Below are positions 22,237 to 31,229 of a stretch of 64,000 nucleotides of DNA, in pieces. Origin of the DNA: Escherichia phage JK1. The notes beneath the pieces were generated by a model. It did not search any database. It was given only the letters and a program-made list of their open reading frames with translations, and had not been told where the DNA came from. The stretch is taken from the sequence record MZ436830.1. One strand, 5' to 3'. A program made the translations under genes and the position numbers. Within the stretch, counting starts at the first letter, position 1. Each line of letters starts with the position of its first letter.

Positions 22237-22289
22237 CCTCATGTTATGTCAGTAAGACTACTATAACACAACACGAGGGACTTGTAAAC
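22237..22289 (-). repeat. 53-bp promoter/leader cassette, copy 1
   Basis: 51 of 53 positions identical to 37451-37503; spans -35 through the Shine-Dalgarno region. Confidence 0.85.
22260..22288 (-). promoter_or_regulatory. Early sigma70-type promoter (-35 TTTACA, 17 bp, -10 TATAGT)
   Basis: Minus strand GTTTACA-17-TATAGT followed by GAGGA and ATG 22228; inside the 53-bp repeat. Confidence 0.55.
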
Positions 22290-24346
22290 TACATCTTGAA
22301 CTTTTTAGACATTCCGTTGATGTTAACCAAAGAAGCCAAGATTTGAGAAACTTCGTTTTCCTCTTCTTTTGATTCTTCTACAAGGAATTGATTAAATCCA
22401 GCCATTGGACGAACTTCACCAGTTTCCATTAAATGGTCGCCATCATATACTGATTCTTCTAATTGTTCAGAAGGAGGAACGATTGTACCTTCTATTAGAT
22501 ACTTGTTATAAGCAGTTTCTTTCATAAAGTACGTGCTCACTTTATTAATCTTCAGTAAAATTCCACGCGGTAGAATAACTTCAGCTTCTGATGGAAATCC
22601 TGATAAATGACCTGGAACGATAACTTTGATTCGCTCAGCTCCTTTAATTACCATACCCACGCTAGTTTCAGCATCTTCATTAGCATATGTAGAATGACTA
22701 CCCATATGCATCAAATCTTCTGCATCAACGGAACCTTCTCCTTCACCAGAAAATACTGCGCCGGAATCATCTAGAGCCATATAGTTTTTACCATGCTCAC
22801 CGAAGATATTTGGTTTAAGCGATGTGGATACGAAGTTCTTGAAATAGAACATTTTATTTTCAATGTTATGACGCAAAGTTTTAAAGGTAACTTCTTGCCC
22901 ACGATAAAGAGTAGTTCCTGGAGGAAGAACAGAACCTTTAGCAAATGCAGAATCCAACGTCTCGATGTGTTTAATAGCTCGTTCCATATATTCTTCACGG
23001 GTAGAATCAGGTTTACCTAAAAGGAACGAGTTCATTTCAACATATGAATCTGCACAATAATCTTCAATTACATCAGATTCAGCTTGGGTTAATCCTTTTG
23101 GAGTTACTTCGGTGCTTGCGTATTCATATGCCTGAGCAGCAGATTCATTAATCAATTTATAAATGCCATTCATTACAAATTGAATAATAGCTGTCTTTTC
23201 ATCTGGCGTAGCTTTAGAACCTTTAACCAAATCATTGATAATTTTCTTAATAACATCAAAGCTATTAGAAATATTAATGTCAGCAAGATCGCTTAAAATT
23301 TTATCAGTTTTATAATCAAAGAATTCTTTATTCTTTAAATATTCTTGAGAACCTTGATATGTTATATCGCTCTGCAACTTGATGGATGGATCACGTAAAC
23401 GTGCATGGGCTAATGCAATATGATTTCGGAAACTTTCTAGTTCATAATCGTTAGATTTAAAACGAGAAGCACTCCTCATACCACCGATAGCTCCTTTGCT
23501 GAAGTTTGAACCAATCTGAATAACGCCAGAGTTCATTGGTCCTTCTGCTTTATATACCGGAACTTTAGATTCAAACTCTTGATATTTCTTAGCAGCGAAG
23601 CTATCACCCTGAAGTGAAGCATCAACAGTAGAATATTGAGCTTGTGCTGCTAATCGACGACTAATTTTAGTTTTCTGAATAACAGCTTGATCCGTGCGCT
23701 TATCATTTTCTAAAGCAATAGAAGCAGCGACAGCGACAGCTTTAGGAACAGCATTACCTGTTTTAACGTCTACATAAACATCACCAACCTTTGATTCAAC
23801 TTTTGTGAATAACTCAGTTGAAATAGGAGGTACACCTGGAATGTCTTCTAAATTGGCATTTTTACGGTAAACCATAATATATGCATATTTCTTATCATAG
23901 TCCCAGATTTCCTTTAAAAGAACATATCGACCTGCTCCTTTAGTACGTACTAAACGGTCAGCAATAACTTGCATTTGACGAGCTGCGCCATTTGTTTTAC
24001 TTTTTAGTACGCGGAATAGGCATGCGTCGATTTTATACTGTTTCATTGTTTGAAGAGCAGTATCAAAAACAGCATTAATGACGCCAATTGGATTTCCACC
24101 CAAGTTTCTAAGCTTGACTAACGATAATTTCTCGTTGACACCTATCATTACGATATGCATCATTTTGTCGCCTGGCTTAACGTTTTTATTCGTATCACCG
24201 CCAGAGGTGTATGTACAAAATCTAAATCCAGGAAGAACGCTTTCTTCACCGGCTTGAATAGCAAAAATTTGTGGTATTTTATGCTTAGGATTTAAGTTAA
24301 CAACCGGCGCCGAAGCGCCGTCAAATAATTCTGTAATAAGTTCCAT
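22289..24346 (-). CDS. Alt-family ADP-ribosyltransferase, paralog A
   Basis: 685 aa; N-terminus MELITELFD...; C-terminal R-S-EXE-like motifs (YRGQ, FVSTSL, SEAEVILPRG) and YDGDHLMETGEV tail. Confidence 0.85.
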   Translation of the reverse strand: MELITELFDGASAPVVNLNPKHKIPQIFAIQAGEESVLPGFRFCTYTSGGDTNKNVKPGDKMMHIVMIGVNEKLSLVKLRNLGGNPIGVINAVFDTALQTMKQYKIDACLFRVLKSKTNGAARQMQVIADRLVRTKGAGRYVLLKEIWDYDKKYAYIMVYRKNANLEDIPGVPPISTELFTKVESKVGDVYVDVKTGNAVPKAVAVAASIALENDKRTDQAVIQKTKISRRLAAQAQYSTVDASLQGDSFAAKKYQEFESKVPVYKAEGPMNSGVIQIGSNFSKGAIGGMRSASRFKSNDYELESFRNHIALAHARLRDPSIKLQSDITYQGSQEYLKNKEFFDYKTDKILSDLADINISNSFDVIKKIINDLVKGSKATPDEKTAIIQFVMNGIYKLINESAAQAYEYASTEVTPKGLTQAESDVIEDYCADSYVEMNSFLLGKPDSTREEYMERAIKHIETLDSAFAKGSVLPPGTTLYRGQEVTFKTLRHNIENKMFYFKNFVSTSLKPNIFGEHGKNYMALDDSGAVFSGEGEGSVDAEDLMHMGSHSTYANEDAETSVGMVIKGAERIKVIVPGHLSGFPSEAEVILPRGILLKINKVSTYFMKETAYNKYLIEGTIVPPSEQLEESVYDGDHLMETGEVRPMAGFNQFLVEESKEEENEVSQILASLVNINGMSKKFKM

Positions 24347-24349
24347 GAT

Positions 24350-26446
24350 TTATCCTTGAACGAACTTGTAAGGCATGTTTGTAATATCTATGCAAGACGC
24401 AATAATTCCAAGAGATGATTCTACTTTCTGTTTAACGTTTGATGAAACAAATGATGCAAAGTCAACTTTGTCTTCTATTTCAATATCACCTGTCATTGCA
24501 ACTACTTCGCCGGTTTCCATTAGATGGTCACCGTCATAAATTACCGATTCGGTGAGTTCTTCTGTGGTCATAACTTCAGCTTGAATAAGTTTTGTATTAT
24601 TAGATGTTGTTCCGTCATTATTAGAAGCATCAGTTATTTTATTAACTTTAACCATCAATCCGCGCGGTAGAATAACTTCAGCTTCTGTTGCTATTCCTAG
24701 ACTTCCTGGATATACAACATTAACTTTATGTGCGCCGTCAATTGCCCATCCTATTTGAACTTTAACGTATTCAGGATTTTCTTTATACGCTCTTATTTCG
24801 TTTGGATTAATAGTTATTCCTTCTTCATTTTTATCAACTGTTAATTCATTGCGAGCTTCTGGTTCTAAAAGACCAATACCAGCATGTGTAATTCCAAAAC
24901 GTCCAAAAATGATAGGAGTTAAAGAAGTAGATACAAAATTTCTGAAGTAGAACACTTTATTTTTAACTAACGCTTCATATATAGGAGCAGTCATACTTTG
25001 AGCACGATAAACTGTAATGCCTTCTGGTATACGGTCACCATTTTCAAAAGCTGAATCTAAGTTATTTATAGCAGATTCAATTTCTTTTTCACTCATTACA
25101 TCATATCGTTCTGGATTGTAACGACCTAAAAGAAGATTATTGATGTCAGTATATCCTGAACCGCAATATTCTCTAATGCCACGCTTTTGTGATGGAGTAT
25201 ATTTAGAACCATCGCGGGCAATAGTAATATCAATCATTGGACCAGCACCAATTCCAGAAAAACTGTAAATCATTCGTTTGAGGAATTTAGTTTTTGCTGC
25301 GTTCCAGGAATTTTTAGTTATTTCTTCCCAGACTTCATCTGGTTGTCCTTTACGATTTTTATTATGATTAGCAAGCCATTTATCTTTATAATCTTCAAAG
25401 AATTGATTTACAGCTGCTGCGTATTTCTCTAAACATTTTATTGAAGTAGTTGGTTCATTTTTAATTGCATTAAAAATTACTTCTTTAATTTTTTCTGAAA
25501 CTTCACCGACTTGACTCATTGGAAAGAATTTATAATCATAGTGAAGTTCATCTGCCGTTCCTTCAGCAATAATTTTTGCTGCCTTTGTTTTAGAAGCTAA
25601 TGAATTAATTCCAATTTTCATTTCTTCTGCTTCGGGAATTAAAGGTGCAGTAGCTGGTTTATTAAAATTAGCTGCTGTAGATTCATACTTCTGGAATAAT
25701 TCACTTTCAAATCTAGAAGATTCCAATGACTGACTTTGTGCAATTGCTCTACGGGAAATTTTAACTTTAACGATTACAGCTTGGTCAGAACGTTTATCGT
25801 TTTCTTGCGCAATAGATGCTGCAATTGCCTCATTTTTAGTTACTTGGGCTCCAGTATCTTTATTGATATAAACATCACCAACCTTCGATTCAACCTTAGT
25901 AAAGAGTTCAGTACTAATTTCTGGAACTCCTGGAATGTCTTCTAGTGATACGTTTTTACGATGTATAAGAATATATGCATACTTTTTATCGTAATCCCAG
26001 AGTTCCTTAAGAAGGACGTATCTGCCACCTGAACGACTACGGATAAGTCTATCAGCAATAACTTGAATTTGTCGAGCTTGACCAGCGGTTTTAGACTTAA
26101 GAATACGAAGCATACAAGCATCAATTTTATATTGACGCATTGTTTGCATTGCAACAGTAAAAACTGAATTGATATAATTAATTGGGCTTGGACCAAGACC
26201 TTTCAATTTAGCAATTGAACCTTTAGCAGTTAATGTAAAAGGAACAATATGCATCATTTTGTCGCCCATTTTTAAATCACGATTAGTATCACCTCCAGAT
26301 GTATAGGTACATAAACGAAAGCCTGGTTGTTCAATTGCATCATCAACATGAACTGAAAAAATTTGTGGTATTTTCTTCTTTGGATTTAAGTTTGTAATCG
26401 GAAGAGTAGTATCTTCGTCAAATAATTCTGTAATGAGTTCCATCAT
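24350..26446 (-). CDS. alt: Alt-family ADP-ribosyltransferase, paralog B
   Basis: 698 aa; N-terminus MMELITELFDEDTT...; motifs YRAQ, FVSTSL, TEAEVILPRG; late promoter at 26467-26474; which copy is the T4 alt ortholog is not settled. Confidence 0.85.
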   Translation of the reverse strand: MMELITELFDEDTTLPITNLNPKKKIPQIFSVHVDDAIEQPGFRLCTYTSGGDTNRDLKMGDKMMHIVPFTLTAKGSIAKLKGLGPSPINYINSVFTVAMQTMRQYKIDACMLRILKSKTAGQARQIQVIADRLIRSRSGGRYVLLKELWDYDKKYAYILIHRKNVSLEDIPGVPEISTELFTKVESKVGDVYINKDTGAQVTKNEAIAASIAQENDKRSDQAVIVKVKISRRAIAQSQSLESSRFESELFQKYESTAANFNKPATAPLIPEAEEMKIGINSLASKTKAAKIIAEGTADELHYDYKFFPMSQVGEVSEKIKEVIFNAIKNEPTTSIKCLEKYAAAVNQFFEDYKDKWLANHNKNRKGQPDEVWEEITKNSWNAAKTKFLKRMIYSFSGIGAGPMIDITIARDGSKYTPSQKRGIREYCGSGYTDINNLLLGRYNPERYDVMSEKEIESAINNLDSAFENGDRIPEGITVYRAQSMTAPIYEALVKNKVFYFRNFVSTSLTPIIFGRFGITHAGIGLLEPEARNELTVDKNEEGITINPNEIRAYKENPEYVKVQIGWAIDGAHKVNVVYPGSLGIATEAEVILPRGLMVKVNKITDASNNDGTTSNNTKLIQAEVMTTEELTESVIYDGDHLMETGEVVAMTGDIEIEDKVDFASFVSSNVKQKVESSLGIIASCIDITNMPYKFVQG

Positions 26447-28144: not shown

Positions 28145-28410
28145 TGTTCATCCTTTAGAGTTTGGTTTACAGCTCTATTATAAATCAATTCATCATTAAG
28201 CTCAGTCAAAGACCTGTGGTACGTTGTTCTAACTTTATTTCCTTGCATCCAGTGCTTGACGTAAATGAAACCTTGCTCTACACATTTTTTAAAAATTCGT
28301 TCGTCTTTTTGAGCTCGGAATTCTGGATTGCATCTAAAAAATTGATTTACGTGACCGTAATCACGTGTAGTATTACCTTCATTTTCATAAATAGTGTGAA
28401 CGACAAACAT
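28141..28410 (-). CDS. Hypothetical protein (30.x cluster)
   Basis: 89 aa ORF; 4-nt overlap with gene 30 start. Confidence 0.6.
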   Translation of the reverse strand: MFVVHTIYENEGNTTRDYGHVNQFFRCNPEFRAQKDERIFKKCVEQGFIYVKHWMQGNKVRTTYHRSLTELNDELIYNRAVNQTLKDEQ

Positions 28411-29249
28411 TAGAATGCTCCTTGGAAAATATTATCACCACTAGTAGGTCTATTATACAAATACTCTATGCCACCAGGTTTAATATAGTTCCATGTCTGA
28501 AACGGATGTGTCTGATATGGATGATATAGATGATTATAAGGATTAAATCCAGGAGTTCTCCAGGTAGTGTTCCAAGGAAAAGAATCGTTTTTGATCATCT
28601 TCTCAATTACATCTTTTATAAATTTTTCACTATCAAAACTTTCTTTATTTTCCTTCGATGGAAAAAGCTTATTCTCTACATCATTCCATGTATAAACTCG
28701 CTGTGCAGTTTTTGGAATACTGTCACGCTCTCCTCGAGCCATCCAATAAACTGGAACATTTAATATTTCACTCGCATGATCGCAGTGGTGAGCGAGATCG
28801 TCAATATAACAAATTACGTTATATTTCTCTTTTGCCTTTTTGAACAACTCTTCTTTTGAAGAATCATGGCCACACATCAATACTTCTGAGAAGGCACCAG
28901 GAAAAAGAGCATTCAAATTAAATTGACGATTCAGCAGAGCGTCAATAGAATCACCCAATGCTGTAACAGCTACAAAATTATAATCTTCTTTTAATTTGTT
29001 AATTACACACAGAGCATCTTTATATGGAGACAAGTAACGAATAAAATCTGAACGATTATATTTTTCAATTAACTTGACACCAAGTTCTTCATCGCAATTA
29101 AAGAGCTTACCAGGAGAAATAAATTTTTCGTCCTGAATCATTTTTAAAATATGTTCTAATGGAAGATTATATTTTTGGGCAAAATAAGGAAGACCTGATT
29201 GCCAGCTTAAACATACACCATCAATATCAGTCAAAATAGTAGGCTTCAT
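28410..29249 (-). CDS. HAD-like hydrolase candidate (30.x cluster)
   Basis: 279 aa ORF; N-terminal DIDGV (HAD motif I-like) and a later YIDD segment. Confidence 0.55.
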   Translation of the reverse strand: MKPTILTDIDGVCLSWQSGLPYFAQKYNLPLEHILKMIQDEKFISPGKLFNCDEELGVKLIEKYNRSDFIRYLSPYKDALCVINKLKEDYNFVAVTALGDSIDALLNRQFNLNALFPGAFSEVLMCGHDSSKEELFKKAKEKYNVICYIDDLAHHCDHASEILNVPVYWMARGERDSIPKTAQRVYTWNDVENKLFPSKENKESFDSEKFIKDVIEKMIKNDSFPWNTTWRTPGFNPYNHLYHPYQTHPFQTWNYIKPGGIEYLYNRPTSGDNIFQGAF

Positions 29250-29710
29250 AGAGAGTCTCTTAGTAGGTTTAACACATCAATAAATTCAGCTTCGGTTAGT
29301 ATTGTATCATCTTTTGTTAGACCACTAGCCATGCTGTGCTTCAAAACTTTTCCTTTCGAGGCTTGTAATGCATCACGAAAGCCCTTGTTTTGGATCGCTG
29401 CTTCAAAATATGCATTTGTGTATAATTCTTTCCACGCCGGGGAGTATCTTGAAAACGGAACTCCGAGCCAGAAGAGGGTCCCACGGTCCTGAGCTCTTGC
29501 ATAAGACCTTCCAGCTTGCTGTGCGGCAAGCCCGGATAACCCAAATATACGACGTTGTTGTTCAACATTTTTCACCTTGCACCCTTGGAGGAATCCTTCA
29601 AGACCTCCAAATTGAATACCATCCATAACGAAAGGCCATTTGGCGAAATTACTTAATGCACATGATGGCCACCTAAAATTGCTTCTAATCTCTAACTCAG
29701 ACATTTTCAA
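29246..29710 (-). CDS. NADAR (YbiA-like) domain protein
   Basis: 154 aa ORF; SNFAKWPFVMDG...QGCKV... resembles the recalled core of E. coli YbiA-type NADAR proteins. Confidence 0.65.
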   Translation of the reverse strand: MKMSELEIRSNFRWPSCALSNFAKWPFVMDGIQFGGLEGFLQGCKVKNVEQQRRIFGLSGLAAQQAGRSYARAQDRGTLFWLGVPFSRYSPAWKELYTNAYFEAAIQNKGFRDALQASKGKVLKHSMASGLTKDDTILTEAEFIDVLNLLRDSL

Positions 29711-29903
29711 TGCTTATAATTTCAACATCAGCCCAATGACCATAGCAAGGAAGACGAAATTCAACTGGCCAGTTAGGGTCCTTTTCTAATATAATAGACT
29801 TAACTTGTGGTTCTTCATGTTCATCAGTATATGGATTTTTATCTGTTACTTTATATGTGACCTTAATGTACTGAATTCCAAAAATCTTATTAATTATATT
29901 CAT
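29697..29903 (-). CDS. Hypothetical small protein (30.x cluster)
   Basis: 68 aa ORF; overlaps neighbours at both ends. Confidence 0.5.
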   Translation of the reverse strand: MNIINKIFGIQYIKVTYKVTDKNPYTDEHEEPQVKSIILEKDPNWPVEFRLPCYGHWADVEIISIENV

Positions 29904-30860: not shown

Positions 30861-31229
30861 TTATGCAACTTTAATCCAATTATCTAAATTTAATTCACCT
30901 TTGGCTTTCATTTTTTCAATCAAGAGGTCAGCGGTAATACGACCATTTTGATACCACGTAACATCTTCAGAGTAACCAGTTTCTTTATCTTCATAAGTCT
31001 CACAACGAATTTTACCAATAATCAAAGTTTTCAATTCGTATGTATCTCCAGTAAAAAAGTTAGTTAACATTATTTTCCAAGAGAAATCATCAGAAGGACC
31101 TTCAGGAGTCATGCAACCTACAAATTCAAATTGTTCTTTGTATAAGTGCCACTGAAGTTCTTTAGTTTCGATAGCTTTATAGCCGTCGTGATCTTTACCT
31201 TTGATGTATGAGTTAAGATTGATTTTCAT
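30861..31229 (-). CDS. Hypothetical protein (30.x cluster)
   Basis: 122 aa ORF; early promoter and GAGGAGAATAAAATG upstream. Confidence 0.55.
   Translation of the reverse strand: MKINLNSYIKGKDHDGYKAIETKELQWHLYKEQFEFVGCMTPEGPSDDFSWKIMLTNFFTGDTYELKTLIIGKIRCETYEDKETGYSEDVTWYQNGRITADLLIEKMKAKGELNLDNWIKVA

Follow-up and report, generated by a model that had tools for sequence, protein, structure and literature searches.

Does a small gene of a lytic phage, located close to two ADP-ribosyltransferase genes, encode an eraser of ADP-ribose and, if so, against which ADP-ribosylating activity is this eraser directed? The question is raised by a locus of Escherichia phage JK1 (sequence record MZ436830.1), of which a stretch of 64,000 nucleotides, referred to below as the window, was analyzed. 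The gene, 30.3 or adfN in the nomenclature of phage T4, occupies 29246..29704 on the minus strand (stop codon 29246..29248), starts with ATG and encodes 152 amino acids (aa). An initial annotation, made from the letters of the sequence, had assigned to it a NADAR (YbiA-like) domain and had proposed an eraser which protects phage DNA or counters an ADP-ribosylating host defence. As outlined in the following, we are strongly convinced that the gene encodes a T4-type AdfN, that is, a minimal, single-domain N-glycosidase of the NADAR fold which defeats the DarTG1 defence by de-ADP-ribosylation of DNA. The feature is already known, namely as gp30.3/AdfN of T4, and the earlier interpretation was right but not new.

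Gene identity and membership of the NADAR superfamily

In the mechanical list of open reading frames (ORFs), the gene appears as a minus-strand frame of 154 aa at 29246..29710 with a TTG start. The initial annotation described this ORF correctly, including the peptide SNFAKWPFVMDGIQFGGLEGFLQGCKV, encoded at 29573..29653, and the motif of Escherichia coli YbiA which it quoted for comparison was accurate, the real protein reading FSNFAAWPIKVDGKTWPTSEHYFQAQKF. By reaching back to the TTG at 29710, the mechanical frame is two codons longer than the ATG-started coding sequence. The ATG at 29704 is most likely the biological start, because the RefSeq entry of T4 annotates gene 30.3 in this way (459 nt, 152 aa) and because the published numbering of E36 and K43 fits this start only. 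A Shine-Dalgarno sequence is not obvious before either the TTG or the ATG (upstream sequence ...AAGCATTGAAAATG; start region 29702..29710, minus strand).

The protein matches the Pfam family PF08010 (Phage_30_3) with an E-value of 5.6e-70 and a score of 234 bits (cut-off 36), and tblastn finds it in 1510 of 50,697 phage records, among them phages of Escherichia, Klebsiella, Shigella, Aeromonas, Acinetobacter and Vibrio; a match of this quality to a curated family, together with this wide presence, argues that the ORF did not arise by chance. In these records the product is nearly always annotated as 'hypothetical protein', NCBIfam holds no family for 30.3 or for its four neighbours, and PHROGs offers families of 'unknown function' only. 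The protein has the same length as T4 gp30.3 and is identical to it at 150 of 152 residues, the two conservative substitutions being Q22K and I125M; in close homologues, K22 and M125 both occur more frequently than the T4 residues. Furthermore, it is 100% identical to the bas41_0037 product of Escherichia phage FriedrichZschokke (Bas41), a BASEL phage. Judged by these sequence comparisons, the gene is an orthologue of T4 gene 30.3 (adfN, anti-DarT factor NADAR). With regard to protein length, some metagenomic family members comprise about 201 aa, the profile of PHROG 652 is 296 positions long, and the methods of one study (PMC11125620; Toxins 2024) describe the T4 NADAR construct as 'gp30.3; residues 1-208', which mismatches the T4 gene of 152 aa.

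The relationship to the NADAR superfamily becomes visible when the family is compared as a whole. When 53 diverse homologues (34-88% identity) are combined into a profile, this profile aligns with E. coli YbiA in hhalign over 91 columns with a probability of 93.9% and an E-value of 1.5e-7, and an hmmsearch of the same profile against the PDB retrieves YbiA at an E-value of 0.006. Among these 53 relatives, 19 touch the NADAR family PF08719 (best E-value 1.5e-7), and the product itself shows 33% identity to E. coli YbiA over 57 aa in a pairwise BLASTP (E-value 9e-6), the identity of the two proteins being about 19%. The predicted model displays the fold of YbiA, a core of helices with small beta-sheets at its flanks, and its closest Foldseek match is E. 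coli YbiA, which bears out the structure comparison that the initial annotation had suggested.

The residues on which the activity of NADAR enzymes depends are encoded within this fold, and the codons given here all lie on the minus strand. The motif S18-N19-F20 (29645..29653) and the catalytic glutamate E36 (29597..29599) are invariant in the 53 homologues, and K43 (29576..29578), the catalytic lysine that contacts ADP-ribose, is conserved in at least 90% of them. The first aligns to S30-N31-F32 of YbiA in HMMER, hhalign and BLASTP alike, whereas E36 and K43, which show the NADAR spacing of a glutamate and a lysine seven residues apart, are the counterparts of E48 and K55 of YbiA (hhalign) and of E43 and K50 of PnNADAR. 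The last beta-strand (residues 120-123 of the model) carries the likewise invariant H123 (29336..29338), which stands in the hhalign register opposite the glutamate of 'LVEH' in YbiA. This last-strand position splits the superfamily, with Glu in the YbiA family, Asp in BC4488/DarG1 and His in phage gp30.3 (PMC11543638; PMC11125620). Because the acidic residue is replaced by His123, the protein is placed by its sequence in the phage gp30.3 clade, outside both the YbiA family proper and the BC4488 (DarG1) family, in agreement with the orthology to the T4 protein (99% identity) and the conserved gene order. Of the catalytic residues whose presence the initial annotation had made a condition of its assignment, E36 and K43 are there, and the last-strand glutamate of the YbiA family is not. 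Profile-profile comparison, fold and catalytic residues together establish the product as a NADAR-superfamily protein, as that annotation had held.

The C-terminal helix, encoded by the codons of residues 138-152 (29249..29293, minus strand; residues 138-151 in the model), is intact and identical to that of T4, unlike the truncated form of the RB69 type. In RB69, a frameshift through a 1-nt insertion removes the last 15 residues of gp30.3 and thereby inactivates the protein (PMC11825919).

Probable reversal of DarT1-dependent modification of phage DNA

The activity of the T4 protein has been described in a number of reports. DarT1 ADP-ribosylates guanine, NADAR proteins hydrolyse this linkage, and a histidine variant has been noted in phage NADARs (Schuller et al., 2023, PMC11543638). 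In vitro, T4 gp30.3 removes ADP-ribose from guanosine and not from thymidine (Cihlova et al., 2024, PMC11125620), and a 2026 study on the T4 NADAR, which consists of the NADAR core domain alone, found ADP-ribose removed from G and not from C (PMC12945103). The resistance of T-even phages to DarTG1 was mapped to gene 30.3 by phage crosses, upon which the gene was renamed adfN (Johannesman et al., 2025, PMC11825919). In the same work, deletions of adfN in T2 and T4 showed the gene to be necessary for protection against DarTG1, its ability to rescue RB69 showed it to be sufficient, and purified AdfN strips ADP-ribose from DarT1-modified DNA, which the E36A mutant fails to do; E36A, K43A and the truncation impair T4 AdfN (PMC11825919). 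AdfN did not bind DarT1 in a bacterial two-hybrid assay, and it did not counter DarTG2 (PMC11825919). A transposon screen provided independent confirmation, insertions in 30.3/adfN being lost on DarTG1 hosts only, and identified the macrodomain protein Tk.4/AdfM as the anti-DarTG2 factor (bioRxiv 10.1101/2025.11.20.689424). All members of the Bas35-47 set, Bas41 included, have been reported to be fully resistant to DarTG1. The proposal of an eraser which protects phage DNA or counters an ADP-ribosylating defence of the host has therefore been demonstrated experimentally for an orthologue of 99% identity (PMC11825919; PMC11125620).

For the gene of the window, the following chain of events can be envisaged. 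In a host carrying the toxin-antitoxin defence DarTG1, DarT1 would place ADP-ribose on the N2 amino group of guanine in the phage DNA, and this modification would block phage replication. AdfN would then bind the ADP-ribosyl-guanine and hydrolyse its N-glycosidic bond by means of E36, K43 and the clade-specific H123, upon which ADP-ribose would be released, the DNA would again be unmodified and the phage could replicate. AdfN would act in this process as an orphan, antitoxin-like enzyme, without binding to the toxin. For the window copy itself, the orthology, the fold, the presence of the catalytic residues and the intactness of the C-terminus are established. We assign to it the same mechanism because the catalytic residues and the C-terminal helix are intact, because K22 and M125 are the commoner residues and because the identical protein of Bas41 belongs to a resistant set; that it would behave like T4 AdfN can be assumed with high confidence. 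The rescue from DarT2-type modification proposed in the initial annotation would be expected to turn out negative, since AdfN counters DarT1 (guanine) and not DarT2 (thymidine), and since T4 employs Tk.4/AdfM against DarTG2.

Several observations weigh against this reading and have to be considered. PF08719 does not match the protein itself even at E-values up to 10, and a single-sequence phmmer search against the PDB yields a chance match only (E-value 0.63). The initial annotation had named the lack of a significant NADAR profile hit as a refutation, and taken literally this applies to PF08719, with PF08010 being matched instead; the check was too narrow, because both families belong to one superfamily, of which PF08010 forms the phage branch. 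Outside infection, T4 gp30.3 does not rescue E. coli from DarT1 (PMC11125620), and T4 AdfN rescues non-T-even phages weakly. The weak effect outside T-even infection implies a factor that is encoded by T-even phages and needed for full activity, and hydroxymethylation and glucosylation of the DNA have been excluded as this factor. The role of His123 in catalysis is putative, and the behaviour expected of the window copy is that of the T4 protein, on which the experiments were performed. Finally, the E36A and K43A variants still confer partial rescue of RB69 on DarTG1 (PMC11825919), and catalysis may not be the whole story of AdfN.

The last of these observations also speaks for an alternative mechanism, in which DarT1 is neutralized for the most part through binding or shielding, as in the case of AdfA, and not through catalysis, and in which the catalytic residues are of secondary importance. 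Another phage NADAR has indeed been reported to act without enzymatic activity. However, the missing association of AdfN with DarT1 in the two-hybrid assay, the dependence of ADP-ribose removal in vitro on an intact E36 and the invariance of the catalytic residues across the 53 diverged homologues stand against such a mechanism, which we regard as extremely improbable.

The reversal of DNA modification has also to be distinguished from a YbiA-like housekeeping activity, in which an N-glycosidase clears reactive intermediates of the riboflavin pathway or small-molecule N-ribosides instead of acting on DNA. E. coli YbiA, being the closest structural match, would be in favour of this possibility, the corresponding gene is named N-glycosidase YbiA in RefSeq, and several homologues are labelled 'YbiA (DUF1768 family)' by JGI. 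Yet the glutamate that defines the YbiA family is a histidine here and the identity is low, the substrate of the T4 enzyme is ADP-ribosylated DNA, loss of this enzyme has consequences on DarTG1 hosts only, and a published tree places the phage NADAR clade nearest to NADARs of the DarG1 type and not to YbiA. A housekeeping function of this kind is accordingly given hardly any credence. YbiA (PDB 2B3W, PF08719) is moreover encoded by a host gene between rhlE and dinG which is reported to be controlled by LexA, and, besides its naming as an N-glycosidase of riboflavin intermediates, it also removes ADP-ribose from cytidine, unlike the T4 NADAR.

Among the known systems, T4 gp30.3, or AdfN (PF08010), is the direct equivalent of the window protein: length, gene order, E36/K43/H123 and the C-terminal helix are shared, and the two differ by Q22K and I125M only. 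DarG1 (BC4488 family; G. lovleyi structure 8BAT), a NADAR which serves as the antitoxin in DarTG1, differs by an extended N-terminus and by an aspartate at the position of His123. Its gene adjoins that of DarT1, while AdfN occurs as an orphan of a lytic phage, and T4 AdfN cannot substitute for DarG1 in uninfected cells. The AdfN proteins of Bas32/33 and of Bas60-62 are likewise stand-alone, guanine-specific phage NADARs which reverse the DarT1 modification; they belong, however, to other NADAR clades, were acquired independently and do not need T-even-specific factors. Of the further anti-DarTG factors of T4, AdfM (Tk.4) resembles AdfN in being an orphan, antitoxin-like eraser of ADP-ribose, but has a macrodomain fold and counters the thymidine-modifying DarTG2, while AdfA (gp61.2) differs from AdfN in being non-enzymatic and in binding DarT1. 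By their T4 map positions, the genes of AdfM and AdfA would appear to lie outside the window.

AdfN illustrates that a lytic phage can undo the chemical damage which a defence system inflicts on its DNA by means of an orphan, antitoxin-like enzyme, instead of blocking the defence protein. For the annotation of the window, the name adfN can take the place of 'hypothetical protein', the allele being intact and, to judge from its sequence, presumably active. From the intact adfN it is predicted that the phage of the window resists guanine ADP-ribosylation of the DarTG1 type.

Genome context and the neighbouring Alt ADP-ribosyltransferases

The window is a segment of the genome of a T4-like (Tequatrovirus) myovirus, and the 3 kb around the gene are 94-97% identical to many Tequatrovirus genomes. 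The gene order is that of T4, from pseT through cd, 31, rIII and 30.9-30.1 to the ligase gene (30) and alt, and 30.3 lies inside a tightly packed, co-directional cluster extending from 30.9 to 30. Its start is overlapped by 8 nt by the end of gene 30.4 (29697..29903, minus strand), which suggests translational coupling. A promoter and terminator scan of the region from 28 to 32 kb gave counts at the expectation from shuffled sequence, with no consensus promoter directly upstream of 30.3.

The initial annotation had pointed to two ADP-ribosyltransferases at a distance of about 3 kb, and two ORFs of the Alt family (PF03496) are indeed encoded on the minus strand at 24350..26446 and 22289..24346, the former being the nearer at 2.8 kb from gene 30.3. 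Their presence opens the possibility that the NADAR protein serves as an eraser for the phage's own ADP-ribosyltransferases, reversing or limiting the ADP-ribosylation or RNAylation brought about by the Alt paralogues (or by ModA/ModB). In support of this, the two paralogues share the strand of gene 30.3 and follow it downstream at 2.8-7 kb, and the order persists in the Tevenvirinae as well as in a few T4-like phages that are more distant (L016, L017). A neighbourhood survey of 80 related viral loci and a search for conserved partners (ADP-ribosyltransferase, DarT and nicotinamide adenine dinucleotide salvage genes) around 66 distant homologues provide a different picture. Conservation of the order 30.3-30.2-ligase-alt is confined to the T4-like core, and more than 60 loci with NADARs of 36-44% identity are devoid of Alt, ligase or 30.2 within 6 kb. 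When the flanking ORFs of the 66 distant homologues were clustered, no neighbour family occurred in more than 6 loci, apart from opposite-strand ORFs that overlap the NADAR gene, and a conserved NADAR-Alt module was rejected on these grounds. As more than 60 distant loci carry the NADAR gene alone, the proximity to Alt, a part of the T4 core gene order that is absent from distant phages carrying the gene, is to be seen as inherited gene order and not as evidence of a writer-eraser module, and the functional link suggested in the initial annotation receives no support. In addition, Alt is annotated as protein-modifying, whereas the reported activities of the T4 NADAR all concern guanine-linked ADP-ribose in nucleic acids, and the sole conditional phenotype reported for 30.3 is that on DarTG1 hosts. 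A role as eraser for the phage's own enzymes is therefore considered very improbable.

The lone NADAR loci are consistent with the literature, in which AdfN is described as an orphan. The flanks of the window gene are T4 30.4 and 30.2 and contain no DarT, the Alt paralogues being the sole genes nearby with an ADP-ribosyltransferase domain; because of the lack of DarT in the flanks, the gene is regarded as an orphan, antitoxin-like gene and not as part of a toxin-antitoxin module.

The Alt paralogues show features of their own. Both are full-length, arranged in tandem and 41% identical to each other, while T4 possesses one alt gene and, as short remnants, alt.-1 and alt.-2. Compared with T4 Alt, the upstream paralogue reaches an overall identity of 71%, with the first ~250 residues almost identical and the ADP-ribosyltransferase domain diverged, a pattern that suggests a mosaic exchange of the catalytic half.

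Gene 30.2 and variable features of the cluster

Gene 30.2 (28410..29249, minus strand), which is called 'hypothetical' in the T4 RefSeq entry, is translationally coupled to adfN, its ATG overlapping the 30.3 stop codon (ATGA). Sequence and profile searches of gp30.2 against Pfam, NCBIfam and the PDB gave no significant match, and structure prediction alone resolved its fold. Residues 1-200 of the model are confident, with predicted local distance difference test (pLDDT) values above 90, and adopt a predicted capped phosphatase fold of the HAD superfamily. Foldseek returned 115 PDB matches at E-values of 1e-3 or below, consisting of HAD-superfamily hydrolases, with the best TM-scores for 5'(3')-deoxyribonucleotidases. 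In gp30.2, the motifs DxDG, K and DD are invariant. Disorder is predicted for the C-terminal ~80 aa, the length of which differs from phage to phage. On the basis of the model, gp30.2 is predicted to be a phosphatase of the HAD fold that resembles 5'(3')-deoxyribonucleotidases and ends in a disordered tail. A comparison with the phosphatase domain of T4 PseT by hhalign aligned motif I alone, at a probability of 2.8%.

It is tempting to consider gp30.2 as the missing T-even partner of AdfN, or as an enzyme that processes the released ADP-ribose-type product, and the genes 30.3 and 30.2 would then constitute a two-gene anti-DarT1 unit in T-even phages. We regard either role as quite unlikely. 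In its accessible text, the transposon-screen report discusses adfN alone with respect to DarTG1 and leaves 30.2 unmentioned (bioRxiv 10.1101/2025.11.20.689424).

Within gene 30.3, a second frame on the minus strand (29341..29568; 75 aa) is equivalent to the 30.3' annotated in T4 and matches PHROG 14037 with an E-value of 1e-42. This frame is uninterrupted in 14 of 15 relatives, which extend down to a nucleotide identity of 79%, although its ATG is sometimes lost. Given that 17-27% of synonymous main-frame recodings would also leave the 30.3' frame open, the sequence support for a constrained overlapping gene is weak, and the case for it was judged not compelling.

Other small genes of the cluster differ more strongly between phages. 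Among phages that are otherwise nearly identical, gene 30.8 (30861..31229, minus strand) occurs as two strongly divergent alleles: its identity amounts to 37-38% in L003-L005, although the flanking genes there are 97-100% identical, and to 89-95% in the more distant loci L007-L009, L012 and L014. Gene 30.4 is also unusually variable, with identities of 40-95%. These patterns suggest a cassette-like replacement of the small genes adjoining adfN.
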